Shown here piece after piece: positions 1,845-21,303 of a DNA stretch of 36,402 bases. Numbering within the stretch: position 1 is the stretch's first letter; each line of letters starts with the position of its first letter. This DNA comes from Candidatus Omnitrophota bacterium. Its GTDB lineage: Bacteria > Omnitrophota > Gorgyraeia > DAOVKU01. The notes below the pieces were generated by a model. It was not told where the DNA came from, searched no databases, and saw nothing but the letters and a program-made list of their open reading frames with translations. The stretch spans positions 1-36,402 of the forward strand of contig DAOVKU010000003.1 in NCBI GenBank assembly GCA_030631665.1, written 5' to 3'. The translations under genes were made by a program, and so were the position numbers.

Positions 1845-2658
1845 CTTGAAATCTTTTATTTTTAAAATACAGGACGCTATTTGTAGCATCCTCTAATACT
1901 AAATCGAAATCGCGATCCATAAGAAACAGGGTGGAATTTTCTTTTGCTTTTCTATTGTGATATTCCAATACTATCCGCTTCGTAATTGACAACATTTTTG
2001 CTTCGGCCCCGCTCAGAACCTCATATTCTTCCCCTTCAACATCTATTTTTACGAGATCTATTTTTCCAATGCTCCTTTCGGCAATAAAGCTATCCAGGGT
2101 CACACAATCGACTTCGATAGATTTTTGCGCATTTACGTTTAATTCTTCTTCGTGCATAACCTTGCCCTCGCCGGTCATGGCGGCGGGAACCAAAAATCCC
2201 ATCTTCCCGTTTTTAGAAGATACGGCCTTTTGCATGGCGATAACATTATTAACTTTGTTTTCTTCCAGATTTTTCAAAAGGCGTGCAAAAACGGTAGGAT
2301 TAGGCTCAAAAGCCCATATTTTGCCTTTCTGCCCTACTCTTTTCGAACTCTTTACCGCATAAAGGCCTATATTGCTTCCGATATCGAGCACGGTATCGCC
2401 TGGTCTAGGCACGAAACCCTCTGCTTTTTCGTTGATGTTTTTAGCATATATCTGCACGTAAGTGCCCAATTCGCCAGAAGAAGCACCAGCCCAAAATATC
2501 ACGTCTTTAAAAACCATTCTGAATTCCCTGCCTTTTAAGTCAATCAAGTGAAGCCTGTTAAAGATATTTAAAAAAAGATAAGACAAAAAACCAATTTTAC
2601 CTTTAAGGCCTTTCCCAGCGAAAAAAAGTATTATAGTATTCTCTAGGTGATTAAGCAT
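1837..2658 (-). CDS. FkbM family methyltransferase
   Basis: VLDIGSNIGLY, AFEPNP, IDLVKIDVEGEE and LEYH motifs. Confidence 0.92.
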   Translation of the reverse strand: MLNHLENTIILFFAGKGLKGKIGFLSYLFLNIFNRLHLIDLKGREFRMVFKDVIFWAGASSGELGTYVQIYAKNINEKAEGFVPRPGDTVLDIGSNIGLYAVKSSKRVGQKGKIWAFEPNPTVFARLLKNLEENKVNNVIAMQKAVSSKNGKMGFLVPAAMTGEGKVMHEEELNVNAQKSIEVDCVTLDSFIAERSIGKIDLVKIDVEGEEYEVLSGAEAKMLSITKRIVLEYHNRKAKENSTLFLMDRDFDLVLEDATNSVLYFKNKRFQDG

Positions 2659-3817: not shown

Positions 3818-3823
3818 TTTGCC

Positions 3824-4915: not shown

Positions 4916-5382
4916 TTTGTAAGTCCCCCCTTCTTTATTGAAAATAATCGTTTTGTCACGACGGCTAACGGCAAACTCTCACTTAATGATGGTAAAACAA
5001 ATATATCCATGGCAGCAATAAAATCATGAACATCATGCCTGAAACCGGTAAAAATTACTCTTTTTTTAATTTTTAACTTGTTAGTCATTTCAATAAGCTT
5101 TTTTTGAAGCGGACCGCCGCCAGCAATCAATAAGACCACACTAAGAATATCTTTAATTGCCGCTAAAAGATATTTATATCCTTTTTCTTTACTAAGTCGG
5201 TCGGCTGTTCCCACTATTAGAGGAAGGCCTGATTTTCTAACTTTCTTGAAGCTAACAAGCCAGGATACAAATTTATTTTTATCTAAATATTTAAATAAAT
5301 TTAAAATTACTAAATCTCCACCGAAAGGACTTTCCAGGCGGCTACTGATTAAATGGGCTATTCTTATTTTTTCTACTATCAT
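4879..5382 (-). pseudogene. Internally deleted GT4 glycosyltransferase remnant, a paralog of 2651..3817
   Basis: The N-terminus aligns with the neighbouring GT4 up to PLIV, then jumps to GTADRLSKEKG. It lacks about 145 aa, the LLEAMAAGKP segment and the C-terminus. Confidence 0.8.
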
Positions 5383-5400
5383 TTTATCGTCCTTGGGTTT

Positions 5401-6783
5401 CTACGATTCGTCAGAAAATTTTTTCATAACGACAGCCAATGGCAAAATAATCCACAACATTGTTAAAAAAGCCTGTGTCAAAAAAACAGCACAAACTAAA
5501 TAACCAAGAAGCCCCAATCTTAAACTAAGAGCTAAGTCTGACAATAAAAAGTCCTTTTTTTTCTGAAAATTACTTCCTGCTTTTTTTAAATCCTGCCAGC
5601 TAAAAAACAAAAGCAAAAGAAAAAATATCAATCCAAAAATTCCTGTTTCAGCACCTATTTGCAAGTAAGCATTATGTGAAAATCGAGCAACGCGTGTTTT
5701 AATATCCGAAGCCGTAAAGGCTCTTTCTACATACTCATATTGAAATACGTTTAGACCTATACCTCTAAAGGGATGGTCTTTCATCATTTGCAAACCCACT
5801 TTCCAAATTTCAAGTCGACTATTAATAGATGGGTCGCTCAAATCAAAAACACTTTTGGCTCGAGCCCAATATTGCACAGGAATAAAAGGAACTATGCCTA
5901 ATAAAAATACCGATAATAGAACTACCGCAAGTATTTTCCTTTTATGCTTAAAACCAAACCACAAAACAGAACTAGCCAATACAAAAATTAAAGCAACCAT
6001 GCCTCCTCGAGAATATGTAAAGACTACATTTAATATGAGTAAAACAAAAATTAATATCAATAGTGTTCTAGTAATGACATTGCGGTAATTAAAAAACAAT
6101 GCAAATACTAAAGGTATTAAAATTACTAAATGCATAGCATAATCATTGGGATCAAAGGCTGTTCCTCTAATTCTTATAACACCTTCTCCGTAATCCACAC
6201 CGATTCCATGAGCATATTGATATATGCCTATCAGGCAAGCAGCTAGTCCTAAAATTACCAGTCCCCAAATTAATATTAAAAATTTTTTCTTAGTTTTGAC
6301 TAAGTTAACAACCAAAAAATAGAGAATTAAAAGCTTGATAAACTCTAAAAAACCGTAAAAAGAATAATCAAAATATCGAAGAGTGGAAATAAAAAGAGTT
6401 GTTCCAAAAAGGAAAATAATTATATTCTGTTTAGTTTTTACTATTTTAAAATCGCGATAAACAATAATATGAAACAGCCATATGAACAAAACTCCAAAGG
6501 CTAAATTTCTTGATAAATGAAGTGGCCCTAAAACATCCGCAAAAAACTCTACCGGATGAAGCAAGGAACCAATCAAAAAAGCTAAAAGTCCAAAATAAGG
6601 GTCAAAAAAGATAGCAACTAAAAACGCGAAAGAAAAAAAAGCTAAAAGCGCAAAATACCAAGGAATAAAAAGCACCGATAAACCTAACAAAAATGCCATT
6701 CCAATAATTGCAATTTTAATCAGTATTGGTAGTTCTATAATAGGGCGTTCTTCTAAATATGATTTATCTTTCTCTCTAATCAT
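5401..6783 (-). CDS. O-antigen ligase/polymerase (Wzy_C) family membrane protein
   Basis: Many TM segments; GTAFDPNDYA, TYSRGG, SRLEIW, HPFRGIG, HNAYLQIGAETG motifs. Confidence 0.88.
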   Translation of the reverse strand: MIREKDKSYLEERPIIELPILIKIAIIGMAFLLGLSVLFIPWYFALLAFFSFAFLVAIFFDPYFGLLAFLIGSLLHPVEFFADVLGPLHLSRNLAFGVLFIWLFHIIVYRDFKIVKTKQNIIIFLFGTTLFISTLRYFDYSFYGFLEFIKLLILYFLVVNLVKTKKKFLILIWGLVILGLAACLIGIYQYAHGIGVDYGEGVIRIRGTAFDPNDYAMHLVILIPLVFALFFNYRNVITRTLLILIFVLLILNVVFTYSRGGMVALIFVLASSVLWFGFKHKRKILAVVLLSVFLLGIVPFIPVQYWARAKSVFDLSDPSINSRLEIWKVGLQMMKDHPFRGIGLNVFQYEYVERAFTASDIKTRVARFSHNAYLQIGAETGIFGLIFFLLLLFFSWQDLKKAGSNFQKKKDFLLSDLALSLRLGLLGYLVCAVFLTQAFLTMLWIILPLAVVMKKFSDES

Positions 6784-7958
6784 TCTTTTTTAAACTTTTC
6801 CTGGCTTTCAATATGATTTATTAACGTTCTGAATAAATTTCCCCAAGAATAATCTCTAACTACTTCTAATCGTTTCTCTCTCAAGCTTAACTGATTCTCA
6901 CCTAGTGCTTCATCTATTAAATTAATAAAATCTTCTTTGCTGTGTGCAAACATGATTATTCCCTCGAATTGTCTTATGGCTGGCATATCTACAGAAACAA
7001 CCGGTTTGCCTGCTGCTAAATACTCATATACTTTCAAAGGATTAACCCTTTTTGCTAACTCATTCAGTCTGAAAGGATTCAGACAAACATCTAAACCTTT
7101 CAGATAATTAGGCAGCACGCGAAGGTTTTTTCGTCCCAAAAAATATATATTCTTTGGCTCCTTTAATAAAGCCAATTTGTTCTGTGTCATAATAGGGCCT
7201 ATCAAAACTAATGACCACTCAGGTTTAGATTTAGCAATATAGAGAATTAAATCCAAATCAATCCAATCAGCAATTCCGCCTATATAACCAATTCTTGGCT
7301 GAGGTATTGCCTGAAGTTCGCTGGGTATGGCAGTTTCCTCTTCACCTGCCTTACTAAAATGTTTTATATCTACTCCGTTAGGAATAATAAAAATATTTTT
7401 ATTTAAATGCTTTTTATCGTCATATAACTCCTTAGTTGTCACAAAGACCATATCTACTTTTTTAATTAGCCTTATCTCCATTCTTCTTATCAATCGTTTG
7501 TTTACATTGGGATAGGCCGAATGCTCATCCACGCAATCATAAATTGCCAGTTTTTCAGAGAAGGCACCTATCAACTTATCTGAAGAAGGAGTGTATGTCC
7601 AAAAGATTGGGTTATTTAGAGTCAGTTTTCTCTGCGCGCTTTTAATTTCCTGTCTCAAAATTAATTGATTCCATAAAGAAATTATCTCAAAACGCCCAAA
7701 TGGAATTTTAACCGCAGGTGTCAAAATATATAAATTTTCTGAAACTTTCTTCAGTTTACTGAATGGATTTGATTTTGCTCTATTTAATGCTTCGCTAACT
7801 TTAGCATAAACAGACCTGCCACGAGCAAAACAAATAGGTTCGACATAGAGTACTTTGTTGCCCTCTTTCGCCAGCATATTCATAAAACGCTGTTTTCTGG
7901 TCCAAAGGTCATCCCAGCACATTGTAGATACACAAATTATATTTTCATTTTTTAACAT
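6780..7958 (-). CDS. Glycosyltransferase (GT-B, TuaH-like)
   Basis: WDDLWTRKQ, YDCVDEH, PNGVD, NPLKVYEYLAAGKPVVS. Confidence 0.88.
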   Translation of the reverse strand: MLKNENIICVSTMCWDDLWTRKQRFMNMLAKEGNKVLYVEPICFARGRSVYAKVSEALNRAKSNPFSKLKKVSENLYILTPAVKIPFGRFEIISLWNQLILRQEIKSAQRKLTLNNPIFWTYTPSSDKLIGAFSEKLAIYDCVDEHSAYPNVNKRLIRRMEIRLIKKVDMVFVTTKELYDDKKHLNKNIFIIPNGVDIKHFSKAGEEETAIPSELQAIPQPRIGYIGGIADWIDLDLILYIAKSKPEWSLVLIGPIMTQNKLALLKEPKNIYFLGRKNLRVLPNYLKGLDVCLNPFRLNELAKRVNPLKVYEYLAAGKPVVSVDMPAIRQFEGIIMFAHSKEDFINLIDEALGENQLSLREKRLEVVRDYSWGNLFRTLINHIESQEKFKKE

Positions 7959-8090
7959 ATCAATTCTCTTTAGTTAAATTAGTTAAAATTTCTCTTAAAG
8001 ACAAATTTTGTACCTCGCATTCATAATAATTTTATTATCAATTTTATAAATATGGTGCGTTTTGTCCCAATAATTGCCTCCATTAATTTA

Positions 8091-9401
8091 TCATTTAGTC
8101 TGTAATTTTGACATTATTCTAAAATATACATCAGTATAAATTTTAAAATCACTCTTTTTTATCAATAGTGTATCAATTAAACTACTTCCTGAAATCTTCA
8201 AAAATGCCCTAAGGATTATGCCTGCTCCTACAAAATAGGCAATGCTAGAAGCAAAAGCTGCTCCACTAATACCCCATTTAGGAATAAGAAATAAATTTAG
8301 CATTATATTTATAACCAAGGATGCAAGTGCAGCATAAGTATTAATAATTGGCTTGCCCCTACCAATTATGTCGCTGGCCAATACCTTAGGGATACTAAAA
8401 ATCACTATACCTGGCAATAATATACATAGAGGCTTAACAGACGGGAGATATGCTCGTCCATATAAAGAAAAAATAAAAAATCTACTTAAAATAAAAAGAA
8501 CCAAGGCCATTCCTGTAGTAATAAAAAAAGTATGCCTACATATTACTGGAGTTAATTTATTAGCCTCTTTTGCGTCTAATGAAGATATCTTGGGCAACAA
8601 AACTATGGCCATTGTGCTCGAAATATGCCAAAGCATCTCGGCACCCACTACAGCAATAGAATAATATCCCAAATACATTGCTCCTAAAAAGTACATGACT
8701 AAAAACATATCTAACCGATAATTAAGGAATTGCGCAATATTACCAAGATGTCCTTTAATCCCAAAAACAAGTGAGTCTTTTAATAATTTAAAATTAAGGC
8801 TCATTTTTATTCTTATTAATTTATTAACCCAGAAAATAGAAATAAAACTTGTTAAAACTGCAGCTAATACATATGATAAAACAGCGCCAAATACACCTTG
8901 TCGTAAAATAATTAATGCTATTATGAGAAATCCGAGCAAAAAAGTAGTTTGTAGAATATCTAACAAATTATATCTTTTTATATTATTTTTACCTAATAAT
9001 ATATATTTAAAATATATTACAAGCAAACTGAATGGTATCGCGCAATGGGCAATAAATATATTTATAAAATTTATTTCTTTTAAAAAAAGAGGGTGAGTAT
9101 ACTTAATAAATATTAAAGCAAAAGTTGAAAGAAGAGTTCCTAAAAAGAAAGCTAAAATTAATGAATTTGAAGTAATATTAGATAATTTATATTTCCCTTT
9201 GCCGATAAAATATACATTTGCTGTCCCTACACCTAGGTTTCCCAAGTTTATTATTAAAAGAGGAATTAAAATAATAAATGAATATTCACCTTTACCTACT
9301 GGACCTAGTATTCGCGCTGTAATTATGCTTATAAAAACACTTATAATAAATAGTGCTATGCGTGCTGATAATGTTATAATGCTACTTTTAATTAGGCCCA
9401 A
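8091..9401 (-). CDS. wzx: Wzx-type oligosaccharide flippase
   Basis: ARILGPVGKGEY, NYRLD, GYYSIA, LIPKWGISGAAFAS; about 12 TM segments; TTG start after AGGAG. Confidence 0.9.
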   Translation of the reverse strand: MGLIKSSIITLSARIALFIISVFISIITARILGPVGKGEYSFIILIPLLIINLGNLGVGTANVYFIGKGKYKLSNITSNSLILAFFLGTLLSTFALIFIKYTHPLFLKEINFINIFIAHCAIPFSLLVIYFKYILLGKNNIKRYNLLDILQTTFLLGFLIIALIILRQGVFGAVLSYVLAAVLTSFISIFWVNKLIRIKMSLNFKLLKDSLVFGIKGHLGNIAQFLNYRLDMFLVMYFLGAMYLGYYSIAVVGAEMLWHISSTMAIVLLPKISSLDAKEANKLTPVICRHTFFITTGMALVLFILSRFFIFSLYGRAYLPSVKPLCILLPGIVIFSIPKVLASDIIGRGKPIINTYAALASLVINIMLNLFLIPKWGISGAAFASSIAYFVGAGIILRAFLKISGSSLIDTLLIKKSDFKIYTDVYFRIMSKLQTK

Positions 9402-9427
9402 TTATATGCTCCTATATATTTTAATAT

Positions 9428-10249
9428 TTATTTCTCACAGACAGCTAGTAAATCTAAAGAATTTCTTATATTTATCTTTGATACAGTGAAATCTTCCAAA
9501 TCAACATTAGAGAGAGGTGTTGATATGCCTATTATTTTTGAAATGCCTCTAGTTATCAACATTCTTATTTCTTTAGGAATTAAATTTTTAACTTGATAAA
9601 TAGTTAATTTTCTAAGCCTACGGATAAAGCTACGATATTTAAATCTAGACAATTCTTTCTTTTTTATTCTTGCGTTACCCTGGATACCATATAACTCAAC
9701 TGTATTAAAATATATTTGCAGTAATTTATGCAATTCTTTTACAGAAAATTCTTGGATATGAAATGGATTAAAGGGGACATCACCAAGAACTAGACGCGTT
9801 TCTTTGTTTGGTGTAGATATAATACAAAATCCACCAGGTTTTAATACCCGCTGGATTTCGGCTAAACATTTATTATAATCTCTTATATGTTCAATAGCCT
9901 GAAAAAAACAGACTACATCAAAAAAATTATTTGGAAAAGATAAATTTATCGCATCCATCTTCATAAATTCTATGTTATTTTTCTTATAATTAGACTTCGC
10001 ATGTTCTATTGTTTCCCCAGAAAAATCTATGCCAATAATTTTTTTCGCATACTTAGATAAATAATTTGAACCGTATCCTTCACCACATCCTATATCTAAG
10101 ACAACTTTATTTAAGACAAAGGATTTACTAAAATTATATGCTACTAACTGACGATAATAAGACTCTTGATATTTTTTAAGTCCTGGAACTACCCTTTCAT
10201 CGCCCCATTTGCTTGCTAATTGTTCTTTATAGTTATTTATTCTTTTCAT
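9428..10249 (-). CDS. Class I SAM-dependent methyltransferase
   Basis: VLDIGCGEGYG, FDVV, IEH, RVLKPGG, STPN, NPFH. Confidence 0.92.
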   Translation of the reverse strand: MKRINNYKEQLASKWGDERVVPGLKKYQESYYRQLVAYNFSKSFVLNKVVLDIGCGEGYGSNYLSKYAKKIIGIDFSGETIEHAKSNYKKNNIEFMKMDAINLSFPNNFFDVVCFFQAIEHIRDYNKCLAEIQRVLKPGGFCIISTPNKETRLVLGDVPFNPFHIQEFSVKELHKLLQIYFNTVELYGIQGNARIKKKELSRFKYRSFIRRLRKLTIYQVKNLIPKEIRMLITRGISKIIGISTPLSNVDLEDFTVSKINIRNSLDLLAVCEK

Positions 10250-11340
10250 TTATAACGTTCCTTTTTATTTAATAATGCCTTATATAAGCTTTCCATTTTC
10301 CCTGCATTCTTATTCCAATCATAACTTTGAATTACAAATTCCCTGCCTTTCTTTCCCATTTCCAATCGCCTCTCTTCATTTTGCAATAAAACCATCAACG
10401 CATCAGCTATTGCTTGCGGGTTTTTGGGTTCGATCAATATCCCTGTTTCTCCATCCCAAACCGCTTCTGATACTCCTCCGACTCTAGATGCCACCACAGG
10501 GATTTCCATGGCTTGAGCCTCAATAGCTGCAACGCCAAAAGATTCTGATTCTGATATAGATGGCATTACAAAAATATCTATTTGAGAAAGATAAGTAGGC
10601 ACTTGGGAATATGGAACTTCTTCTTGAAATGTTACAATATTCTCAATTTTTAATTTTTTAACCAGTTCAATTAAATAATCTCTTTGATAACCACTTCCCA
10701 CAATTAACACTTTTATATTTTTGTATTGATTATATACTTGGGGAATAGCCTTAATTAAATACTCGACCCCATATTTTGGCAGTAGATGTTTTATCATGCC
10801 AATTGTAATTCTTTTAGATTTAATTTTAGATTGAGGGCTAAATTGATTTATATCTACCCCAAATGGAACAATTTCAATTTTTCTCCAATCTAAGTTAGCA
10901 TATTTCGCAGTAGCTTTAGCTAAAAATTTAGTTGTGGAAGTAACTATAGTCGCTTTTTTTAATATAAATTTTTTACTAAACTGCTGCCTAAATGACTCAA
11001 CACTCTCATTTAAAAAACCAAGAATGTCACTTCCCCAAGTCGATACTATAAAAGGTTTAAAATCGCATAAAATTGGAGCTAACCCAAATGGTTCTAAGTA
11101 ATGCATGTGAATTATATCGGGCCTTATTCTTCTAATAAAACCCTTGAACCATATAATATTCTTTATAGTATTAAAATAAGGAATTTTTAACTTTAATATA
11201 TTGAGTTGATGAATAGTTGCGCCATTGATTTTCGCTTGTCCATTTGAAATTATATGTATTTCGTGTCCTTTTTTTGCAAAATACTCTATCCATCTTTGCG
11301 TATGAATATATCTTGCATCCGAAAGAAAACAAATTCTCAT
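10246..11340 (-). CDS. Glycosyltransferase family 4
   Basis: HTQRW, WGSDI, PFGVD, ESFGVAAIEAQAMEIPVVASRVGG. Confidence 0.92.
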   Translation of the reverse strand: MRICFLSDARYIHTQRWIEYFAKKGHEIHIISNGQAKINGATIHQLNILKLKIPYFNTIKNIIWFKGFIRRIRPDIIHMHYLEPFGLAPILCDFKPFIVSTWGSDILGFLNESVESFRQQFSKKFILKKATIVTSTTKFLAKATAKYANLDWRKIEIVPFGVDINQFSPQSKIKSKRITIGMIKHLLPKYGVEYLIKAIPQVYNQYKNIKVLIVGSGYQRDYLIELVKKLKIENIVTFQEEVPYSQVPTYLSQIDIFVMPSISESESFGVAAIEAQAMEIPVVASRVGGVSEAVWDGETGILIEPKNPQAIADALMVLLQNEERRLEMGKKGREFVIQSYDWNKNAGKMESLYKALLNKKERYK

Positions 11341-11353
11341 ACTTTTCGCCTTT

Positions 11354-12451
11354 CTAACGCAAATCTTTACTTAATAAAATATTTGCGATTCTTTCTGCTG
11401 CCTTGCCATCCCAAAATTTAGGAATTTTGCCTTTTTTTTCTTTGCCCTTGATTATTTTTAAGCTCTCTTTAATAATTTTTTCTTTATTACTTCCGACTAT
11501 TATATTAGTGCCTTCTGTTACTGTTATGGGCCTTTCGGTTGTTTCGCGAAGAGTAATGCAGGGAATTTTTAGTATTGTTGTCTCTTCTTGAATTCCTCCG
11601 GAATCTGTTAAAACAAATTTTGATTCAGACATCAATTTTAAAAAATCTAGATATCCTAATGCGTCTACTATTTTAAAATTCTTCATTTTTCTAATTTTAT
11701 TATTCAAGCCAAATTCTTCTATTCTTTTCTTAGTCCGCGGGTGAATCGGAAAAACAATTTTTATTTTTTTCTGTATTTCCCCAAAAGCATCTAAAATTCT
11801 AACAAAAACTTTTTTATCATCTACATTGCTCGGCCTATGCAGTGTTAAAGCAGCGTAATCTTTAGGTTGTAAGTTTAGTTTTTTAAGTATGCCAGAATGA
11901 GAAGCTTTCTTAATATGTTTTAGAAGGGTGTCTATCATAACATTGCCGACAAAATGGATTTTATCCTTTGAGATGCCTTCTTTTAGTAAATTCTTATTAG
12001 CATCATGGCAAGTGGTAAATAAATAATCTGAAATGGAATCAGTCAAAATTCTATTTATTTCTTCAGGCATGGTGCGGTCAAAACTTCTCAAACCCGCTTC
12101 AATATGAGCAACAGGTATAAAAAATTTAACTGCTGTCAAAGTACAGGCAATTGTAGAATTAACATCACCTACTACAACGACCAAATCCGGCTTTTCTTTA
12201 AGTAATACTTTTTCAAACTTAACCATAATTTTAGCCGTCTGAACAGCATGAGAAGCTGACCCTACGCCTAAATAAATATCAGGAGGTGGCAATTTTAAAT
12301 CGTCAAAAAATAATTTGGACATTTCTTTATCATAATGCTGCCCTGTATGAACAAGAATAGGGGTAAGCTTAGAACGTTTCTTCATCTCATCAATGATAGG
12401 CGCTATTTTCATAAAATTTGGTCTTGCACCTACAACATTTAATATTTTCAT
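11354..12451 (-). CDS. wecB: UDP-N-acetylglucosamine 2-epimerase (non-hydrolysing)
   Basis: VVGARPNFMK, HTGQHYD, HIEAGLRS, MPEEINR, TDSGGIQEE, TERP. Start set at ATG 12451 (MKILNVV). Confidence 0.96.
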   Translation of the reverse strand: MKILNVVGARPNFMKIAPIIDEMKKRSKLTPILVHTGQHYDKEMSKLFFDDLKLPPPDIYLGVGSASHAVQTAKIMVKFEKVLLKEKPDLVVVVGDVNSTIACTLTAVKFFIPVAHIEAGLRSFDRTMPEEINRILTDSISDYLFTTCHDANKNLLKEGISKDKIHFVGNVMIDTLLKHIKKASHSGILKKLNLQPKDYAALTLHRPSNVDDKKVFVRILDAFGEIQKKIKIVFPIHPRTKKRIEEFGLNNKIRKMKNFKIVDALGYLDFLKLMSESKFVLTDSGGIQEETTILKIPCITLRETTERPITVTEGTNIIVGSNKEKIIKESLKIIKGKEKKGKIPKFWDGKAAERIANILLSKDLR

Positions 12452-12519
12452 ATTCTTTTTCTCCAAAATTAAAAAATCAAAACCCACTTAGAAAATTTTA
12501 AAGTTGTAACATTAGACTG

Positions 12520-13077
12520 TTATTTTTTAATAGCTCCTAAATAAAGCTTCATAATCTGTGGGCGATTTAAAGCTCTCGATAATTCACGGATTTTCGGCGT
12601 TAGGTATCTGCGATTAATTAATTTCTTTTGCATAGACAATATCTTCTTTACATCTTCTATATCTTTTGGCCTTTCAGATATTATTTTATGAACTATTAAG
12701 TCTTCTAGTGAACAAATATTTACTTTTGTCTTTGCCACTTTTCGAATAACAGCGCGCCTAATAGCTCTTTCTTCGTAAGGCAAGGTAGCAAAAATAATAT
12801 CTATGGTTAAATTTTCTGCTTCGACAGGCAAAACTCTCGTTTTACTAATAAATTTTTCCGGTTCAGAAACTAAAACGTGAAATTTGCCTTTTATTTTATT
12901 AACAAATTCTGGCACATTCTCATCTTTGATTTTCACCGTAACATCGATATCTAAGGTAGTTCTCGGCTCTCCCCAAAAAAGATTTGCTATCCCTCCTATA
13001 ATCATATAAGGAATTTTTTGTTTTTTTAAAAATTCGGCTATATCAATTATAGTTTTCTCTAATTGGGTAATAGACAT
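12520..13077 (-). CDS. Nucleotidyltransferase (Pol-beta fold; DUF6036/AbiEii-like)
   Basis: YMIIGGIA...PRTTLDIDV and EDLIVHK...RPKDIED. Likely start ATG 13077 (TAATG overlap, GGAG upstream); the ORF track starts it at 13092. Confidence 0.8.
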   Translation of the reverse strand: MSITQLEKTIIDIAEFLKKQKIPYMIIGGIANLFWGEPRTTLDIDVTVKIKDENVPEFVNKIKGKFHVLVSEPEKFISKTRVLPVEAENLTIDIIFATLPYEERAIRRAVIRKVAKTKVNICSLEDLIVHKIISERPKDIEDVKKILSMQKKLINRRYLTPKIRELSRALNRPQIMKLYLGAIKK

Positions 13078-13310
13078 TATTTTTTTCTCCATAAAGAAAA
13101 ATTCTTATGCAGCTGCGTAACTCCCTTTCCATAATCTTTTTGAGACAATAATCTTCCTTTTGTCTTAGAATATTTTTTTAGGTAGAAATCAACTACCTCG
13201 CCAATAAGCCGAATATTTGATTTATTTTTGCGAATAGGCTTTTGGCTATTTTCCCAAATAGCAAACTCTTTCCAGAATTGTCTGCGCTTATCCCATTCTT
13301 TTTCAGTCAT
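13077..13310 (-). CDS. Small basic hypothetical protein, translationally coupled to the nucleotidyltransferase
   Basis: 77 aa, AAGGAG RBS, stop overlaps the next start. Confidence 0.7.
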   Translation of the reverse strand: MTEKEWDKRRQFWKEFAIWENSQKPIRKNKSNIRLIGEVVDFYLKKYSKTKGRLLSQKDYGKGVTQLHKNFSLWRKK

Positions 13311-13334: not shown

Positions 13335-13364
13335 AAAAAACCAAAACCCGCGGGAGGATTTTGG
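13335..13364 (-). terminator. Intrinsic terminator after the secretin-PCP-kinase genes
   Basis: Minus strand CCAAAATCC-tcccgc-GGGTTTTGG followed by TTTTTT. Confidence 0.6.
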
Positions 13365-13397
13365 CATATACTAGTACACTGATACTCCTATGCACAA

Positions 13398-14213
13398 TTA
13401 TAAGTGCTTATGGATATATTCGGGTATATGGTATTGAATATTAGTTAAAGTGATACCTAATAGCTTAGCACCAACTGCTTTTAAAAGGGATTCTGTTCTG
13501 CTAATTACTTCCCTGCGGGTTCGCTCTGCTTTGACTACCAGCAACACTCCATCGCATACCTTGCTTATTATCCTGGGGTCCGCGTAGGGGATAACTGCCG
13601 GGGTATCTAAAATTATATAATCAAAACGCTTTTTTAAATTATCGAGGGTTTCTTTGAGTTTTGGAGAACTTAATAATTCAGTAGGGCTTGCTTCTACTTC
13701 ACCGGCGCAGATACAAAATAGATTATGTATGCCTGTTTCAATAATTACTTCATCTGTTGTGGCAGTTCCGGCTAATACATCACTAAGGCCCTTTTGCGTG
13801 CTTAGGCCTAAATATGAATCGAGGGCCGGCCTTCTGAGATTACAATCTATAATTAAAACTTTTCTACCTAAATTCTGAGATAAAACTATAGCCAAGTTAA
13901 GAGCGGTTATGGTCTTGCCTTCATGTAAAGAAGAACTGGTGATAACCAGAGTCTTTAAGGCGGCTGCCTCCGGCAAAGATAAGAGCTGTGTCATCAGATT
14001 GCGATACTGGTCTGCTACACGAGAGCGGGGGTCTGCGTAGGCCACAAGCCGGGCGTCAATTCCTTCCCTGGCCGCTTCAGGCCTTTTGGGCACAGTAGGC
14101 GCGACGTATTCGGTAACAGGAGGAAGAGATGGCGGTGCAGCTTTTTTGGAATTCTTATCGCGCTCCTCATGCGCTTTTCTTAGGGCTTCTGAGAGTTTGT
14201 TTTTTTCGTCCAT
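13398..14213 (-). CDS. CpsD/CapB-type bacterial tyrosine kinase (split Wzc cytoplasmic part)
   Basis: Walker A SSLHEGKT, A' LIIDCNLRRP, Walker B IILDTP; N-terminal KLSEALRKA as in PEP-CTERM-locus kinases. Confidence 0.9.
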   Translation of the reverse strand: MDEKNKLSEALRKAHEERDKNSKKAAPPSLPPVTEYVAPTVPKRPEAAREGIDARLVAYADPRSRVADQYRNLMTQLLSLPEAAALKTLVITSSSLHEGKTITALNLAIVLSQNLGRKVLIIDCNLRRPALDSYLGLSTQKGLSDVLAGTATTDEVIIETGIHNLFCICAGEVEASPTELLSSPKLKETLDNLKKRFDYIILDTPAVIPYADPRIISKVCDGVLLVVKAERTRREVISRTESLLKAVGAKLLGITLTNIQYHIPEYIHKHL

Positions 14214-15818
14214 TTATTGTTTTTCCATCGTTTGCTGGCGAATAAGTTTTTCTTTAATTTTTTGTTCCTGGGTGTTGGAATAAATAGCGGCAAATATTAT
14301 TAAAATTATCAAAAATATTATAAAAATCCATGTCAATCTGGCGTTGCGCACCTTTTGTCGGCGAATTTCCTGGGCGCTGACTATCCTGGAAATAGAACCG
14401 AGAACAGGTAAGTCAATGTATTGCTTAACATCTTCCACTCCTCTAAAAGAATGGTCTGCAAACTCAGCTAAGAAAACACAACCAAAGCCCGACAAAATGC
14501 CTATAACAAAAGCTACAATGGAGGTAAGCAGTCTCTTTGGCTTTGATGGTTTTAGGGGCAGGCGGCCTTCTTCTAAAATTTCATAACGGGTGCCTTTATC
14601 TTTTAACTCTACGGCTGTCAGCCGTGATTCCTCAACTTTCATTTTAAGCATTTCATAAATATTCTGGTTTACACGCACATCTCGGGTTAATTCAGCATAC
14701 ACGCGTTCCTGCTCAGGCAAACTTCCTATTTTAGCTTCATACTCATCCACCAGTCCTTGAAGGCGCTTTCTTCTAGCTTCTAATTCATCAACTTTCTGCC
14801 TGGCATCTTTCTGCCTTTGCTCCAGTCTTTGATAAAACAAAGGAGCGGTTAAGGCTGTGTCGGCATCTATAACTTTTTTGCTCTCGAGGCGAAGCTTTTC
14901 TCTTACCTCCTCAATTTTGGCTATAATAAGAGAAATTTCCGGGTCTTCCGGGTCTTCAACCATTTTGGTATCAAGTTCCGCCTGAAGATTTGAAAGCTCA
15001 ACGGTTAATCTGTTTACATCCGGATTAAGGACTATTAAATCATGTGAAATTATAACCGGTTCATGTCCGGATAATTGCCTGTTTATCCTGCTAAGTTCTT
15101 CTCTGGCCTCTTTAAGAGCCAGCTCTATGGAAGTATGAGAAGTCTGATAGCTGATTAAAAACTGCGTATTCATATCAAGGGCCATGCCGGGTAATTGAAG
15201 GGCTTGTTTTTCTCTAAATTCATAAAGCGTTCTTTCTGCTTTTTCAAGCTGTTTTTTATAAACCTTGGCCTGTTCCTCCGCAAACTTCACGCCTATTAAG
15301 GCCGAGTCGGTCTTTTTCTGTAAGTTTTCTTTAATAAAAAGGTTGATTAAAGTATTAACTATCTTCTGTGCCATTACAGGATCTTTGTCTTCATAGGAAA
15401 TTTGAAAAACATCAGACGCCCTCATAACAACTCCGGTTCTTTTTCTAATGCCCATGATAAGTTTTTCATAAGCTGCCTGGTCGGTAATACCCTTGCTAAT
15501 CCCAAGGGTGTTGACCAAATTGATTAATTGAGGGTAAGATAAGATTTGTTCGGTGAGTGTCCTTAATTTTTCGACCAGAGTGTCTTCTTTAGGCTGTAAT
15601 ATTAATCTTTCCTGATAGGGAATAAGCGGGTTAATAATTTTTTCTTCTTCAACTAAAATTAAAATTGATGATTCATAGTATCTGGTAAGAAAAGAACTGC
15701 CTATGGTAGCAGTGGTAAAAACAACTAAAAAGGGAATAAGAAAAAACCATTTGCGATGAAAGATTATGCGCAAATAGTCTTTTAAGGATGCTTGTATCTG
15801 GTCGGTGGAAATGGCCAT
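14214..15818 (-). CDS. Polysaccharide co-polymerase / chain-length determinant (Wzc periplasmic part, PEP-CTERM-locus type)
   Basis: LKDYLRIIFHRKW plus TM, long coiled coil, RLPLKPSKPKR plus TM, DLPVLGSI, extra C-terminal TM. Confidence 0.88.
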   Translation of the reverse strand: MAISTDQIQASLKDYLRIIFHRKWFFLIPFLVVFTTATIGSSFLTRYYESSILILVEEEKIINPLIPYQERLILQPKEDTLVEKLRTLTEQILSYPQLINLVNTLGISKGITDQAAYEKLIMGIRKRTGVVMRASDVFQISYEDKDPVMAQKIVNTLINLFIKENLQKKTDSALIGVKFAEEQAKVYKKQLEKAERTLYEFREKQALQLPGMALDMNTQFLISYQTSHTSIELALKEAREELSRINRQLSGHEPVIISHDLIVLNPDVNRLTVELSNLQAELDTKMVEDPEDPEISLIIAKIEEVREKLRLESKKVIDADTALTAPLFYQRLEQRQKDARQKVDELEARRKRLQGLVDEYEAKIGSLPEQERVYAELTRDVRVNQNIYEMLKMKVEESRLTAVELKDKGTRYEILEEGRLPLKPSKPKRLLTSIVAFVIGILSGFGCVFLAEFADHSFRGVEDVKQYIDLPVLGSISRIVSAQEIRRQKVRNARLTWIFIIFLIILIIFAAIYSNTQEQKIKEKLIRQQTMEKQ

Positions 15819-15825
15819 AGTTTAA

Positions 15826-17373
15826 TCAAAAACTCTCCTGCTCAAAATCAGGCATCAACGGCTCTCGCAAAAGGCCGGTTGCCATTCGCTTCTCCGTGCC
15901 TGTCCTATCCGTAAAGGTGTGCCATTCCCCTTGAGAAACAATCTGGCGGTTTCTATCGGTTAAAATATGGGGGGTAATAAAAACAATTAATTCCTGCTTA
16001 ATAGTTTCCTCTTCCTTGCTTCTGAACAATAAACCTAAAAGCGGTATATCTCCCAGGAAAGGAATTTTTCTCAAAACCGTCTCTTGTTTATTTTTAATCA
16101 AACCACCCAGGACAATGGTCTCGCCGTCTCTAACCATCATAGTGGTGTCGGCTTGAGTGGTATCAATCGCAACCGCATTATCAACGTCGGGCAGGCGCCT
16201 GGCCTTGCTTACTTCCGGATGAATGACCATGGTTATATAACCATTTTCACCGATTTGCGGAGTAACTATTAGCTTAATGCCTACATCTATATATTCGGTT
16301 GATTCAGTGACGAAACCGGTTACCGGATCTTCGCTGGTTATAATATAGGGCTCACTGGAACCAACTAAGATATTGGCTTCTTCATTATCCAAAACACAAA
16401 TGCGGGGGGCAGATAAAACCTCTGCGTCGCCGCTTGTCTCAAGGGCTTCAAGTATTATGTTATACTCATCGGAAGTTAAAGTGCCGATATTGAGTATAGT
16501 GCCCTTAGCTAAATCTACACTCAAATCTTCCTTTAAATCCATGCCTACGCGTTGAGGACTTCTGGTTGTGTTGTCATATTCCCATCTTATGCCCAGCTGG
16601 AGAGTTTTATCTAAGTTCACTTCCATCAATCTGGCTTCTATTAAAACCTGCTTATGCTGAACATCCCAGCCGCTTATTAATTCATCTGCATCTTTAAGAA
16701 CTACAGGTGTGGCCTTAACTACTACGCTGTTTGTTCTCTCATCAACAAAAACCTGTCCTTTTTCCGGGGGAATAAGCCGTGTCAATCTTTCCATCAAGTC
16801 AGAGGCCCGGGCAAATTCAAGCTTATACTTTTTAAGTACTGTTTTTTGATCCAGTAACTTAAGGGCTCTTTCCATTTCCTTTATCTTTGTCGGTGTATCG
16901 GTGATAATGACCTGATTGCTTTTGGGGCTCAGTTCAATTTTGCCTCTGGAGGTTTTCATTGAAAGCAATGCCCGGCGTAAATCCATCACATCTGTATGGT
17001 CGAGTGTAAAAACTTTTGTTATCAAATTGGCAAATCGCTCTTCCTGCTGGGCGTCAGCGTATGTATAAATAGTTATGATGTCGCCGTCTTTGGAATACAT
17101 GTAATTGTTGATTTTAAGAATTGAGTCCAGGGCTCTTTCTAAGGAAACATTATCAAGTTTTACGGAGACAGTACCGCTGACATTCTGGGAAGTAACGATA
17201 TTAAGGCCGCTCTGGGAAGCAATCATCTTAAGAACCTGGTCTATGGGGGCATTTTCTACATCAATGGAGACAAGGGACTCCTGTGAAAAAGATAGCTTAT
17301 TGGACTCAAACGCCAGCAAAGCCGCTATTATTAAAAAAGACAAAAATAACTTTTTAGGGAAACTTTTACGCAA
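15826..17373 (-). CDS. Outer-membrane secretin (GspD/PilQ family)
   Basis: Signal peptide; N0-like VSIDVENAPIDQVLKMIA; two N3-like repeats (e.g. DERTNSVVV); secretin core QVLIEARLMEV...LSAPRI...GIKLIVTPQI...DGETIVLGGLI...KIPFLGDIPLLGLLFRS...ELIVFITPHI. TTG start with AAGGAG. Confidence 0.95.
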   Translation of the reverse strand: MRKSFPKKLFLSFLIIAALLAFESNKLSFSQESLVSIDVENAPIDQVLKMIASQSGLNIVTSQNVSGTVSVKLDNVSLERALDSILKINNYMYSKDGDIITIYTYADAQQEERFANLITKVFTLDHTDVMDLRRALLSMKTSRGKIELSPKSNQVIITDTPTKIKEMERALKLLDQKTVLKKYKLEFARASDLMERLTRLIPPEKGQVFVDERTNSVVVKATPVVLKDADELISGWDVQHKQVLIEARLMEVNLDKTLQLGIRWEYDNTTRSPQRVGMDLKEDLSVDLAKGTILNIGTLTSDEYNIILEALETSGDAEVLSAPRICVLDNEEANILVGSSEPYIITSEDPVTGFVTESTEYIDVGIKLIVTPQIGENGYITMVIHPEVSKARRLPDVDNAVAIDTTQADTTMMVRDGETIVLGGLIKNKQETVLRKIPFLGDIPLLGLLFRSKEEETIKQELIVFITPHILTDRNRQIVSQGEWHTFTDRTGTEKRMATGLLREPLMPDFEQESF

Positions 17374-17388
17374 ACTTTTCTCCTTTTA

Positions 17389-17436
17389 ATGAGTACATCA
17401 CTTAGCGAATGCAATGAAGCTAAGTTATGTCTTCAT
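17389..17436. repeat. Imperfect inverted repeat in the secretin 5' leader
   Basis: atga-gt-acat-c-acttagc / gctaagt-t-atgt-ct-tcat around a 12-nt loop. Confidence 0.6.
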
Positions 17437-17465
17437 TTGATGTTCTAAAAATTTCTATTACTAAA

Positions 17466-17494
17466 TTTATACCATATAAACAAAGGTTTGTCAA
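17466..17494 (-). promoter_or_regulatory. Sigma70-like promoter for the secretin/EPS operon
   Basis: TTGACA-17 bp (ending TGG)-TATAAA on the minus strand. Confidence 0.7.
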
Positions 17495-17529
17495 CTTCAA
17501 TAGAGCGACGGAAACAGTTCACAGCCACA

Positions 17530-17551
17530 TTCTGCCTGCCAGCAGGCAGAA
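17530..17551. repeat. Short perfect palindrome (REP-like) downstream of the DGC gene
   Basis: ttctgcctgc-ca-gcaggcagaa. Confidence 0.65.
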
Positions 17552-17592
17552 GTCGGCAGTCCACAGAAAAATAAAAAACTGCTGTGGGGTTA

Positions 17593-19590
17593 TTAGGCCT
17601 GGCAGGTTGCGTTTTTGCCCTCTTCTTTAGCTTGATAAAGGGCTGTGTCTACTTTTTTGAGCAATTCTGATTTAGATGTGGCCGAGGTAGGATAATTTGC
17701 TACACCTAAACTAACGGTTAATTTTATAGGTTCGTCTGTTGAAGAAGAAAAATCATAATTTTTCACCACACGCCTCATTCTTTCAGCAAGATAAAAGGTT
17801 CCGTCTTTATCTGTTTCAGGTAAAAGAATCATAAATTCTTCTCCGCCGCATCTGGCTACAACATCGACATTGCGGCAGATTTCCTTTAAAATTGAACTCA
17901 ACTCTTTCAAGACAATATCTCCCTGCGGGTGACCATGGGTATCGTTTATTTTCTTAAAGCCGTCTATATCCAGCATTATAAACCCTAAAGGTTCCTGATA
18001 TCTTTCGGCTCTTTTTAATTCTTTATCAATTTGCTCTTTTAGGTAACGATAACCGTACAGACCGGTTAAACCATCTCTATTTGAAAGTTCTTTTATTCTT
18101 TTGTGGAGAGCGGCGTTGTTAATGGCCGGGATAGAACGCTGAGCAACAATGGAAAATAGCTTAAGGTCTTCTTCCGCGAAAGCATCCTTTTTTGAATGGC
18201 TCATAGCCAACAAGCCCATAACCTTATCCGCATTATGGAGCAGTTCCGCCTGAAAAGAGCTTACTATGTCTTCTTCTTTAAAGCCTTCGGTGACAATGGC
18301 CGGACCGTCGAAACGGTTAAGGGTAACCTTATCTTTTGAAAGCATCTTATGAGTAAGTTTATTGAATGAGTCAATAATCTTTAATTTAAACTTTTTGACT
18401 TCGGCCTCCGTGGCCGGATATTTAATGCTTATAATAAGTTCTCCCTGAGATTTCTCGTCAACTAATAAAAGGCCGCAGAAATGAAAATCAACTAATTGTT
18501 CAACTATTTCGATAACGGCATTTATGGTCTGGCGATAGTTAAGATCGGCGGTTACAATTTTGTTTACCTCATCGGAAATAGTGGTTTCATAAAGTTCTTT
18601 GTCAAGAAATTGGTTTGCTTCTATTAAAATTTTATTTGCTCCCTCTAATTTTTTCAGCCGCTTCTCGGTCCCATCAAGCCTTGCGCAAAGTTTGGAGCTT
18701 TGAAAGCCAAAAGAAATTTGATTGACTAAAATCATAAGCAGGTTTAAATCGTCTGTGTTGTAGGCCTCTTTGTTAATCTTGTTGTTGATGTTGATAACAC
18801 CCATGGTATCCGCAAATTTCACGGGTACCGAGAGAAAAGACTTGGTGTAATATTTATCGTTGTTTTCTTTATAAAAACGGCCATCCTTTTCTATGTCACA
18901 GACAAGTAAAGGATAATTCTGCTGAGCCACCCATCCGGAGATACCCTCCCCAAATCTAATTTTTGTATCTAAAACTATATTCTCATTTAATCCGGTAGCG
19001 GCTTTGATAATAAGAACATTTGAATCTTTATCTGCTAACATCAAAGAGCCGAGTTCAGATTTAAGTATAACTGTCATTGCTTCAATTAGCTGCTGAAAAA
19101 TTTTCTGAACAACAAGAGAATTTAAATCCGAACTTTCCTGATAAGCCCGGGTTAAATTATTTATAATTTCATTAAATTTTTTAGTTTTATCTAAAAAACT
19201 GCTAAAATTTATATTCTTTGAAAAATGAGAGATCAAGTCTTTTAATTGCTCGCCTATATTCTCTTTCTCAAGCGGCTTTAAGAGATAATCATCTGCGCCG
19301 GCCTTTATGCTCCAGAATTTCAATCTATCTTTTGGTTTGTCTGTAAGAATAATGATGGGAATATCGCGATATTCTTCTTTATTTTTCAAGAGTTTACAAA
19401 TCTGATAATCACTGATATCGCCTATGGCCGGATTTAGAAAAATCAGCTGAGGTTTGACCTTATAGACAGTTTCCAACCCTTCCAGGCCGCTTGAAACAGA
19501 AATGGTTTCAAAACCCAACCCTTCCAGGCCTTTGTTTAGAAGATTAACGGTATCAATATCGTTTTCGAAAATTACAGCTTTACTCTTCAT
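17593..19590 (-). CDS. Diguanylate cyclase: degenerate REC + GAF + GAF + GGDEF
   Basis: REC-like N-terminus (GADDYLLKP); GAF (GEGISGWVA, SFLSVP); DGLTGL, DIDGFKKINDTHGH, RNVD I-site, GGEEF, ALYQAKEEGKN. Confidence 0.93.
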   Translation of the reverse strand: MKSKAVIFENDIDTVNLLNKGLEGLGFETISVSSGLEGLETVYKVKPQLIFLNPAIGDISDYQICKLLKNKEEYRDIPIIILTDKPKDRLKFWSIKAGADDYLLKPLEKENIGEQLKDLISHFSKNINFSSFLDKTKKFNEIINNLTRAYQESSDLNSLVVQKIFQQLIEAMTVILKSELGSLMLADKDSNVLIIKAATGLNENIVLDTKIRFGEGISGWVAQQNYPLLVCDIEKDGRFYKENNDKYYTKSFLSVPVKFADTMGVININNKINKEAYNTDDLNLLMILVNQISFGFQSSKLCARLDGTEKRLKKLEGANKILIEANQFLDKELYETTISDEVNKIVTADLNYRQTINAVIEIVEQLVDFHFCGLLLVDEKSQGELIISIKYPATEAEVKKFKLKIIDSFNKLTHKMLSKDKVTLNRFDGPAIVTEGFKEEDIVSSFQAELLHNADKVMGLLAMSHSKKDAFAEEDLKLFSIVAQRSIPAINNAALHKRIKELSNRDGLTGLYGYRYLKEQIDKELKRAERYQEPLGFIMLDIDGFKKINDTHGHPQGDIVLKELSSILKEICRNVDVVARCGGEEFMILLPETDKDGTFYLAERMRRVVKNYDFSSSTDEPIKLTVSLGVANYPTSATSKSELLKKVDTALYQAKEEGKNATCQA

Positions 19591-19937: not shown

Positions 19938-20531
19938 TTATCTTAATTTTTGTCTATTTGTAAAGGCAATATCATCAATATAGATAATGCCTTCTTTTTC
20001 GGTGGCTATGATATCATCAAAGATGATAACAAGCTCGGATATGTTGCTAAAATCACTTATGCCTTTAAAATCTTTAAAAGGCACGACGATTTTTGTCCAG
20101 TTATCGCTGACACCGGTAACTATAAACCTGCCGATATCACCTTGTTCATTCTTTAATTCAATCTTGAACCTGGTCGTATAACCTGCGTCAGGATCACCTT
20201 TCACCCAGAAAACAAGCGCATTATAACTAGAAAGGTCATTGCCTTCCAGCTTTGTCCAGAAACCGTTATAAGCCGGATTGGGGGAATCTACATCATATTC
20301 CAGCTTAAGTGAAGCGCCTTTTTTGCCATGCTTTACTTCGGTATCAAACGTCTCAAGGCACCCTTGAGTTGTATCAGCAGGGTCTTTGTCCCAAGCACCC
20401 ATTCCCCCGCCAAAATCATTTATACGGTCGCTGTCAAAATCCGTCAATTTCAAAGTAACGGCTTCGGCGCTAAAAGCAAAAACCAAAACGACCGTCAAAA
20501 CAAGTAATAACTTTAATGCGTATCTATCCAT
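19938..20531 (-). CDS. Secreted carbohydrate-binding module protein (CBM11-like)
   Basis: Signal peptide ending AEA; SLKLEYDV...YNGFWTKL...DLSSYNALVFWVKGD...WTKIVVPFKDF...GIIYIDDIAF beta-sandwich pattern; GGAGG RBS. Confidence 0.75.
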   Translation of the reverse strand: MDRYALKLLLVLTVVLVFAFSAEAVTLKLTDFDSDRINDFGGGMGAWDKDPADTTQGCLETFDTEVKHGKKGASLKLEYDVDSPNPAYNGFWTKLEGNDLSSYNALVFWVKGDPDAGYTTRFKIELKNEQGDIGRFIVTGVSDNWTKIVVPFKDFKGISDFSNISELVIIFDDIIATEKEGIIYIDDIAFTNRQKLR

Positions 20532-20664: not shown

Positions 20665-21303
20665 TCAACTTCTTTTTCTTTTGATGAAAGCCATTAGGCC
20701 CACTAAGCCGGAACCTAAAAGAAGCAGTGTGCTCGGTTCAGGAACGGGAACTGAATCCGCATAAGCATCATCGAAATAAGCTGCTCCCGTGAAAGGACCC
20801 TCGCCCCATGTCTCAAGAAGGACGGTATACTTAACATAATTCGTCCCTGTTGGTGCAACAGCACTATACTGAAGAGCCTCCCAACCACTTGTGGCCGCAG
20901 ACATTGAAGTCTTTACTGCTGAGCCAATGGTAACATCAGGCGCACTTTCAAATGCTATTTCCAAAGTGGCCAAGGCGTTACCTAACGCTATCGGTATATT
21001 TACCGGCTGATAGGCATATACTGTATCATTGGCTGCAAAAGGTTGTCTCTGGCCCCATCCGCCCCATCCAGAACCTGTGGCCTGTGTCTTTCCGGAATAT
21101 GAACCACTTTTTACAATAGTTGATTCTTTGCTGCCGGTTATATCCGGGTCGCTAAACATGTGCCACCAGTCTGCCGGAACCTCTTCTCCGCCGTACATTA
21201 CCCAAGTTTCAAACCCTGCATTGCTAAGCAGGTTTGCCTGGGCTATGGATGGCAGAGCCATAACTGCTGCTAAAGCTACTGCGCATAGAAGTTTTGCTTT
21301 CAT
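20665..21303 (-). CDS. PEP-CTERM sorting-signal surface protein with a CBM4/9-like beta-sandwich
   Basis: Signal peptide ending AQA; NLLSNAGFE start; C-terminal VPEPSTLLLLGSGLVGLMAFIKRKRS. Confidence 0.93.
   Translation of the reverse strand: MKAKLLCAVALAAVMALPSIAQANLLSNAGFETWVMYGGEEVPADWWHMFSDPDITGSKESTIVKSGSYSGKTQATGSGWGGWGQRQPFAANDTVYAYQPVNIPIALGNALATLEIAFESAPDVTIGSAVKTSMSAATSGWEALQYSAVAPTGTNYVKYTVLLETWGEGPFTGAAYFDDAYADSVPVPEPSTLLLLGSGLVGLMAFIKRKRS

Follow-up and report, generated by a model that had tools for sequence, protein, structure and literature searches.

We analysed a 36,402-nucleotide stretch of DNA from a Candidatus Omnitrophota bacterium (contig DAOVKU010000003.1, positions 1 to 36,402; hereafter the window), in which a secretin gene stands directly ahead of a polysaccharide co-polymerase (PCP) gene and a bacterial tyrosine kinase (BY-kinase) gene, at the head of a Wzx/Wzy polysaccharide locus. 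The secretin stands in the position that is held in the Wza-Wzc module by an outer-membrane polysaccharide export (OPX) gene. All three genes lie on the minus strand. The first (15826-17373) encodes a GspD/PilQ-family secretin of 515 aa with a signal peptide, an N0/STN domain, two ring-building Secretin_N domains, a secretin beta-domain and a C-terminal helix; as read from the sequence, its start codon is TTG, preceded by AAAGGAG. After a gap of 7 bp (15819-15825) follows the PCP gene (14214-15818; 534 aa), which is of the PCP-2b type with the kinase as a separate gene, and after a gap of 0 bp the gene of a BY-kinase-type P-loop ATPase (13398-14213; 271 aa). A promoter-like site (TTGACA, 17 nt, TATAAA; 17466-17494, minus strand) was read from the sequence 5' of the secretin as a consensus match only. 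The automated promoter scan demands that the second hexamer have T as its sixth letter, and the site is therefore unlisted by it. Just past the kinase stop, a terminator-like hairpin with a T-run (13340-13365, minus strand; 10 pairs, 4 of them G-C; tail TTTTTTAATTC) closes the three-gene unit. The window gave no Rfam match at the gathering score and the region 17300-17700 none at E up to 1, so that no known riboswitch lies ahead of the secretin. The initial annotation had described the same succession of promoter, secretin, PCP, kinase and hairpin, with the same two gaps, and the open reading frame (ORF) coordinates and our reading of the sequence bear it out.

The window protein belongs to the secretin superfamily PF00263. 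It matched the Pfam families Secretin at 161.6 bits (cut-off 27.5), Secretin_N at 76.2 bits in two stretches and STN/N0 at 50.9 bits, and its profile matches to solved PilQ and GspD chains reached down to E 1.7e-59. The monomer model (mean pLDDT 68.0) consists of N0, two alpha/beta ring domains, a beta-rich core and a C-terminal helix. The score against the GspD equivalog TIGR02517 was 275.0 bits, below the cut-off of 351.35, and that against the PilQ model TIGR02515 was 285.8 bits, only just above the cut-off of 284.35. There is no pilMNOP context around the gene in the window.

The PCP matched GNVR at 44.7 bits and Wzz at 26.3 bits in Pfam. Its best NCBIfam model was TIGR03007, the chain-length determinant of the XrtA system, at 264.6 bits, which is below the equivalog cut-off of 278.85. 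The PCP model (mean pLDDT 76.5) shows helices at residues 24-42 and 429-454 and long helical hairpins at residues 147-408. The best Foldseek matches of the model were Wzc and Wza-Wzc entries (best E 1.7e-10), and the sequence-profile matches were PslE and Wzc. With Wzz and GNVR, two membrane helices flanking a helical periplasmic domain and a split kinase, the protein is a PCP-2b. The kinase matched AAA_31 at 44.4 bits in Pfam and TIGR01007 at 156.2 bits, above the cut-off of 108.05, and its sequence has a GKT P-loop and two Tyr within the last 12 residues.

The conservation of the trio was examined in 401 genomes of the Omnitrophota class of the window. Matches to the secretin at E up to 1e-95 came from 47 genomes, and matches to the PCP at E up to 1e-40 from 46. 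A secretin ortholog was directly followed by a PCP ortholog in 37 of the 401 genomes, in 7 families; this count was obtained from cross-matched secretin and PCP coordinates, with three cases cut by contig ends added from locus synteny. The orthologs in these 37 genomes were 46-91% (secretin) and 44-90% (PCP) identical. Since the window's own order is represented by only 3 genomes in the sample, the trio spans several orders. The order secretin, PCP, kinase was found in 20 of the 20 annotated loci and likewise in one further locus (L041, genome G002), and the distance from the secretin stop to the PCP start was mostly 3-12 bp. The adjacency, conserved in 37 genomes of 7 families, is far beyond chance.

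A GTDB-wide pattern scan with the PCP alignment, covering one genome per species (185,579 species), returned 36 loci. Their record titles read Omnitrophota, Omnitrophica, PVC group, 'uncultured Planctomycetia' or 'uncultured bacterium', which fits the PVC/Omnitrophota range that the initial annotation had proposed to survey for the trio. The secretin lay 5' of the PCP in all 33 testable loci, the PCP starting the contig in the other 3, and no OPX match was found in any of the 36. In a phylum-level sample, 14 of 401 genomes matched at E up to 1e-60, and all 14 were of the window's class. The trio is accordingly both ancient and specific. A relative linked to OPX has PCP and kinase fused in one protein of 702 aa, the PCP-2a form (L073 4581-6689, G051:C4); in the secretin-linked clade the two are always split.

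The distribution of OPX genes was then compared with that of the trio. Among the nearest PCPs outside the clade (same class, 27-30% identity), an OPX gene lies directly 5' in 6 of 7 loci. The 37 trio genomes contain 40 OPX ORFs (PF02563) and 40 PCP-type/GNVR matches (PF13807) outside the trio, and the latter are all in OPX-bearing genomes. An off-trio PCP lies within 5 kb of 26 of the 40 OPX genes, and none of the 40 lies within 20 kb of the trio. Neither an OPX match nor another PCP match was found in 11 of the 37 trio genomes (G002, G028, G088, G119, G159, G215, G247, G262, G276, G304 and G369), which are 78-97% complete, five of them at least 90%. We looked for a hidden OPX in these five, and all 7 SLBB matches above the cut-off proved to be of the RnfC/NuoF type. 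The OPX genes thus go with the other PCPs and not with the secretin-linked one, which is separate from them. The source genome has a single OPX gene (C54), which heads a canonical OPX-PCP-kinase trio, so that this genome carries both versions of the module. An OPX gene elsewhere that belongs to the secretin-linked PCP had been named as evidence that would speak against the proposed partnership; the genome's OPX gene adjoins a PCP and a kinase of its own.

The origin of the secretin was analysed with a quick IQ-TREE tree of 65 sequences. The PCP-linked secretins have a single origin: they form one clade (22 of 22, SH-aLRT 100), which lies inside a 38-row clade (SH-aLRT 100) shared with paralogues in a type II secretion system (T2SS) context. 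The T2SS-context paralogues of the same class are 43-52% identical to the window secretin, and the copy on contig C90 of the source genome is 51% identical. A GspC-like gene lies directly 5' in 15 of 16 of these paralogues, several of which also have GspL/N, E and F nearby. No GspC match was found in any PCP-linked locus scanned, that is, in the annotated class loci and the GTDB-wide loci, and the window has no GspC, GspE, GspF or pseudopilin gene. The simplest history would be that a T2SS-type secretin was duplicated once and a copy was then captured into the PCP module. The initial annotation had also considered a secretin nested in a GspD or PilQ clade whose machinery elsewhere lacks its own secretin. 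What the tree and the loci give is an adjacent GspD-like clade whose machinery keeps its own secretin, with a GspC-like gene 5' of it in 15 of 16 cases.

The conserved adjacency, the OPX census and the tree support the idea, put forward in the initial annotation, that the secretin is the outer-membrane channel partnered with the PCP. We consider it probable, from this comparison of genomes, that the secretin takes the role of an OPX protein as the outer-membrane conduit and partner of the PCP. In the proposed working, a T2SS-type (GspD-like) secretin paralogue would have been recruited once into the OPX/Wza slot at the head of a PCP and BY-kinase module, and the recruited arrangement would since have passed by vertical descent through several orders of a single Omnitrophota class. 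Wzx would flip the repeat units and Wzy would polymerise them. The oligomeric PCP, under the control of the separate BY-kinase, would form a periplasmic cage. The N0-N1-N3 rings of the secretin might reach down to this cage and replace the periplasmic domains of Wza, and the polymer might leave the cell through the gated secretin pore. The cargo may be polysaccharide, PEP-CTERM protein or both.

Several facts weigh against a secretin-PCP conduit. Of the 37 trio genomes, 26 have an OPX gene somewhere. It is also possible for a PCP to have no outer-membrane gene beside it, since the seventh of the outgroup PCPs (G389:C7, L069 7005-8615) forms a pair with a kinase that is adjoined by neither OPX nor secretin. 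Only 5 clade-discriminating columns separate PCP-linked from T2SS-context secretins over the full length, and secretin-linked and OPX-linked PCPs differ only in a 5-residue insert (75-79) and at the C-terminal end; neither protein therefore shows visible adaptation to a new partner. Within the PCP-linked clade, N0 is slightly less and N1 slightly more conserved, a difference that is too weak to use. Known secretins are made of 12-16 subunits, according to the part of PMC12475490 at hand, and the solved PCP chains matched by profile come 8 per entry, so that the two rings would have to cope with a mismatch in symmetry. The genomes are metagenome-assembled and 69-100% complete, which makes absences provisional, and related genomes are not independent. 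A complex prediction with PCP residues 46-430 and secretin residues 26-250 (20-row alignments) gave no answer (score 0.00, mark 0.32) and is counted neither for nor against the contact. A further point concerns the cargo. Other systems with C-terminal sorting tags cross the outer membrane via T2SS, as described in the available part of PMC11980579, and together with the exosortase/PEP-CTERM genes described below this means that the cargo could be protein.

Downstream of the trio, the rest of the Wzx/Wzy locus (1-12487, minus strand) runs to the contig end. In Pfam and NCBIfam scans it comprises genes for a UDP-GlcNAc 2-epimerase, a family 4 glycosyltransferase (GT4), a methyltransferase, the Wzx flippase (8091-9401, Polysacc_synt), a glycosyltransferase, a Wzy/O-antigen-ligase-like protein (5401-6783, Wzy_C), a glycosyltransferase fragment, a radical-SAM/SPASM protein, a GT4, an FkbM methyltransferase, a GT9 and a GH20 glycoside hydrolase, the last cut by the contig end. 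With a flippase, a polymerase and glycosyltransferases, the locus is one of the Wzx/Wzy-dependent pathway. The initiating transferase is not in the window, where the contig ends, and was found in the locus of genome G087 (PF00953).

Directly 5' of the secretin lies a gene for a diguanylate cyclase with response-regulator, GAF and GGDEF domains (17593-19590, minus strand; GGDEF 159.9 bits). A GGDEF gene is found 5' of the secretin in 5 of 7 families and in 22 of the 36 loci of the GTDB-wide scan, and is absent in family f22. Family matches identified two genes farther upstream on the minus strand, for a CBM11-like protein (19938-20531) and a PEP-CTERM protein (20665-21303), beyond which lie housekeeping genes. 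All the long ORFs of the window are on the minus strand, and a scan of all of them found no gene for OPX, T2SS, the type IV pilus (T4P), Tad or the type III secretion system (T3SS), in agreement with the initial annotation.

The locus of G087 is contiguous. It begins with GGDEF, secretin, PCP, kinase, methyltransferase, Wzx, GT4, an O-ligase/Wzy-like protein and two further GT4, continues with a GH20-like protein, an epimerase, a GT2, a WecA-like transferase, AraC and a PilZ-like protein (weak match), and ends with an unnamed protein, a tetratricopeptide repeat (TPR) protein, an XrtA-like exosortase, EpsI and a PEP-CTERM protein. In the source genome, contig C93 carries an exosortase, EpsI, a PilZ protein, an AraC regulator, a TPR lipoprotein and two PEP-CTERM genes. 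The C93 exosortase scored 176.5 bits against TIGR02602, above the cut-off of 105.55, and 193 against the XrtA model, below 208. An exosortase/PEP-CTERM system, with exosortase, EpsI and PEP-CTERM clients, is thus present, and the G087 locus is an exosortase/PEP-CTERM exopolysaccharide (EPS) locus with a secretin in the exporter position. We considered the unnamed 286-aa protein beside the exosortase as a rival for the outer-membrane step and rejected it, because its sequence, read for the counterpart on C93, is that of a polytopic membrane protein. No outer-membrane candidate besides the secretin was found in the annotated loci.

Other genes of the exosortase module deserve mention. A TPR protein with YbgF/BamD-like repeats is encoded directly 5' of the exosortase (L127 9102-9962, plus strand, which is G000:C93; L125 15410-16258, plus strand), and the copy in the source genome (L127) carries a lipoprotein signal (…FSAGC). 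Because T4P pilotins are TPR lipoproteins, this protein is, by analogy, a candidate for a factor that helps the secretin to assemble. The module also contains a PilZ-domain protein and an AraC regulator (L127 7715-8173 and L125 14067-14534, both plus strand); PilZ is above the Pfam cut-off only in the source-genome copy, at 32.0 bits compared with 21.6 in G087. A GGDEF protein beside the secretin and a PilZ protein in the exosortase module suggest cyclic di-GMP (c-di-GMP) control at both ends of the locus, and the expression or the activity of the proposed conduit is probably tied to c-di-GMP in this way.

These neighbours give rise to another explanation, in which the secretin is the exit for exosortase-processed PEP-CTERM proteins, perhaps glycosylated by the O-ligase-like enzyme, and the PCP and the kinase act up to the periplasm or have a regulatory role. 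Folded proteins are the usual cargo of secretins. PEP-CTERM genes flank the unit, homologues of the window's upstream PEP-CTERM gene holding the same position in three further loci (L042, L047 and L052), and the G087 locus closes with the exosortase module. An exosortase match was found in 31 of the 37 trio genomes compared with 11 of 36 non-trio relatives, a comparison among kin that are not independent. Two of the six exosortase-negative trio genomes (G020 and G231) have a locus in which the contig breaks off immediately behind the PCP. A distance of 13-23 kb separates the trio from an exosortase downstream of it, on the same contig and strand, in 12 genomes. In addition, GlyGly-CTERM and MYXO-CTERM clients require T2SS to cross the outer membrane, as stated in the part of PMC11980579 that was available. 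The translationally close neighbour of the secretin is, however, the PCP and not the distant exosortase, and the OPX/PCP census points to a partnership specific to the PCP. Moreover, the locus has no pseudopilin, GspE/F or GspC gene to drive protein secretion. The non-trio relatives that have exosortases also argue against this explanation: in 12 stretches of 1.2-19.9 kb upstream of exosortases, from 10 of the 11 genomes and several of them cut by contig ends, no secretin match above 45 bits was found. The same stretches gave no match to OPX, PCP or kinase above that score either. We regard this explanation, which the initial annotation had named as its second option, as unlikely.

The two ideas might also be combined. 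The secretin and the PCP would then form a trans-envelope conduit, as one more type of outer-membrane step in lipid-linked (Wzx/Wzy) polysaccharide pathways, the pore of which serves a product bulkier than a bare glycan, namely polysaccharide with PEP-CTERM proteins attached by the exosortase, and the same channel would be the exit of the exosortase system. The pore size given for secretins, 5-8 nm, comes from the accessible part of PMC12475490. We hold this combined route to be possible at best, at about the same low level as the exit for PEP-CTERM proteins.

It is less likely still that the secretin is an alternative gate for T2SS-like or T4P-like machines encoded elsewhere, co-regulated by c-di-GMP with biofilm polysaccharide genes and making no contact with the PCP. 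With that of the window, the secretin matches in the source assembly (1.53 Mb in 128 contigs, 93% complete) number five, which is striking for a 1.5-Mb genome, and the trio genomes have 4-8 such matches each. The description of the secretin as a lone one in the initial annotation therefore holds inside the window and fails genome-wide, where four further matches lie on other contigs. The 51% identity to the C90 copy, the same N0-N1-N3-secretin architecture, the score just above the PilQ cut-off and the GGDEF regulator upstream are what such a spare gate would lead one to expect. Yet the machines found have secretins of their own, in a pilM-pilO-secretin cluster on C41 and in a GspE/F/K/L-N/C/D-like cluster with a secretin on C90. 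The GspC-like neighbour of the T2SS-context paralogues is not matched in the PCP-linked loci, and co-regulation alone leaves unexplained both the 3-12-bp junction with the PCP across several orders and the OPX census. The two other matches in the source genome are short secretins of 458 and 428 aa in tandem on C19 (L009 2050-4747, minus strand); similar tandem pairs were seen in G119:C3, G159:C7, G028:C27 and G215:C110.

That the adjacency is historical baggage without functional coupling, or that the secretin is decaying, is very improbable, since the frames are intact, the order is kept in every testable locus, and the alignment columns have a mean identity of 59% (secretin) and 57% (PCP) among 20 sequences that are 44-70% identical to those of the window, with conservation spanning every domain of both proteins.

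Three further features of the window were noted. Between the terminator of the trio and the epimerase gene, a 77-aa ORF (13077-13310) overlaps the start of a DUF6036/AbiEii-like nucleotidyltransferase gene (12520-13092); the pair (12520-13310, minus strand) resembles an inserted pair of the toxin-antitoxin type. A 167-aa ORF (4879-5382, minus strand) that overlaps the start of the radical-SAM/SPASM gene matches Glycos_transf_1 only in part (profile positions 7-110 of 172) and is probably a truncated glycosyltransferase. Finally, a 572-aa ORF (30187-31905, minus strand) adjoins MlaD/E/F-like genes; it has no family match and only a sub-threshold match to TamB.

The proposed secretin-PCP conduit can be compared with known systems. 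The Wza-Wzc system (OPX and PCP-2a, of the E. coli group 1 capsule) and modules of OPX, PCP-2b and BY-kinase have the same gene order, in which an outer-membrane gene, a PCP and a BY-kinase head a Wzx/Wzy locus; the outer-membrane gene of the Omnitrophota is, however, a secretin (PF00263) and not an OPX (PF02563/SLBB). The XrtA/PEP-CTERM EPS loci (TIGR03007, the TIGR03018 kinase and the TIGR03109 exosortase A) are similar in that the PCP, kinase, O-ligase-like protein and exosortase of the Omnitrophota score best against XrtA models and are accompanied by PEP-CTERM proteins, EpsI and a TPR lipoprotein. The scores lie just under the equivalog cut-offs (264.6 vs 278.85, 167 vs 230.65 and 193 vs 208). 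A Wza-like exporter model belongs to the XrtA/PEP-CTERM EPS loci, and in the Omnitrophota this exporter position is taken by the secretin. GspD of the T2SS and PilQ of the T4P have the same set of domains, N0/STN, Secretin_N rings and secretin domain. Unlike them, the window secretin stands in a locus that lacks a GspC/PilP-type neighbour as well as pseudopilin, ATPase and platform genes, and it belongs to the separate PCP-linked clade.

A related published proposal concerns 'slime nozzles' in filamentous cyanobacteria and Myxococcus (PMC12475490, 2025), in which a PilQ/GspD secretin is likewise proposed as the outer-membrane gate for exopolymer. As far as the part of that paper at hand goes, PilQ/GspD secretins are needed for exopolymer slime secretion, and the authors raise the question whether known EPS systems use a secretin as their outer-membrane component, leaving the inner partners open. 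The nozzles use the general PilQ/GspD of the cell, with speculation on the hps locus and pseudopilins as inner partners, whereas the Omnitrophota have a dedicated paralogue tied to the PCP and the BY-kinase in a Wzx/Wzy locus. Another departure from the Wza model at the outer-membrane step is that of the composite OPX/beta-barrel translocons in Myxococcus (bioRxiv 10.1101/2022.02.11.480155, available in part), but these keep an OPX and a porin, and the Omnitrophota trio is without OPX. Two preprints, as far as they were available, apply the word 'secretin' loosely to Wza or to a porin. In the literature searched, no secretin gene was described in the OPX slot of a PCP and BY-kinase module; subscription journals and supplements lay outside the search, and priority is therefore left open.

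To our knowledge, an OPX protein, alone or together with a beta-barrel, is regarded as necessary for the outer-membrane export of Wzx/Wzy polysaccharide. Secretins, in textbook accounts, conduct proteins, pili, phage and DNA. A secretin in the OPX position suggests an undescribed exit route for polysaccharide. The conserved secretin-PCP-kinase operon would offer a concrete and testable answer to the question asked in PMC12475490, in genomes some of which possibly have no OPX. The secretin of the trio is at the same time a candidate exit route for exosortase/PEP-CTERM systems. In the small-genome Omnitrophota, the trio would thus show how a part of a protein-secretion machine is re-used by gene displacement.

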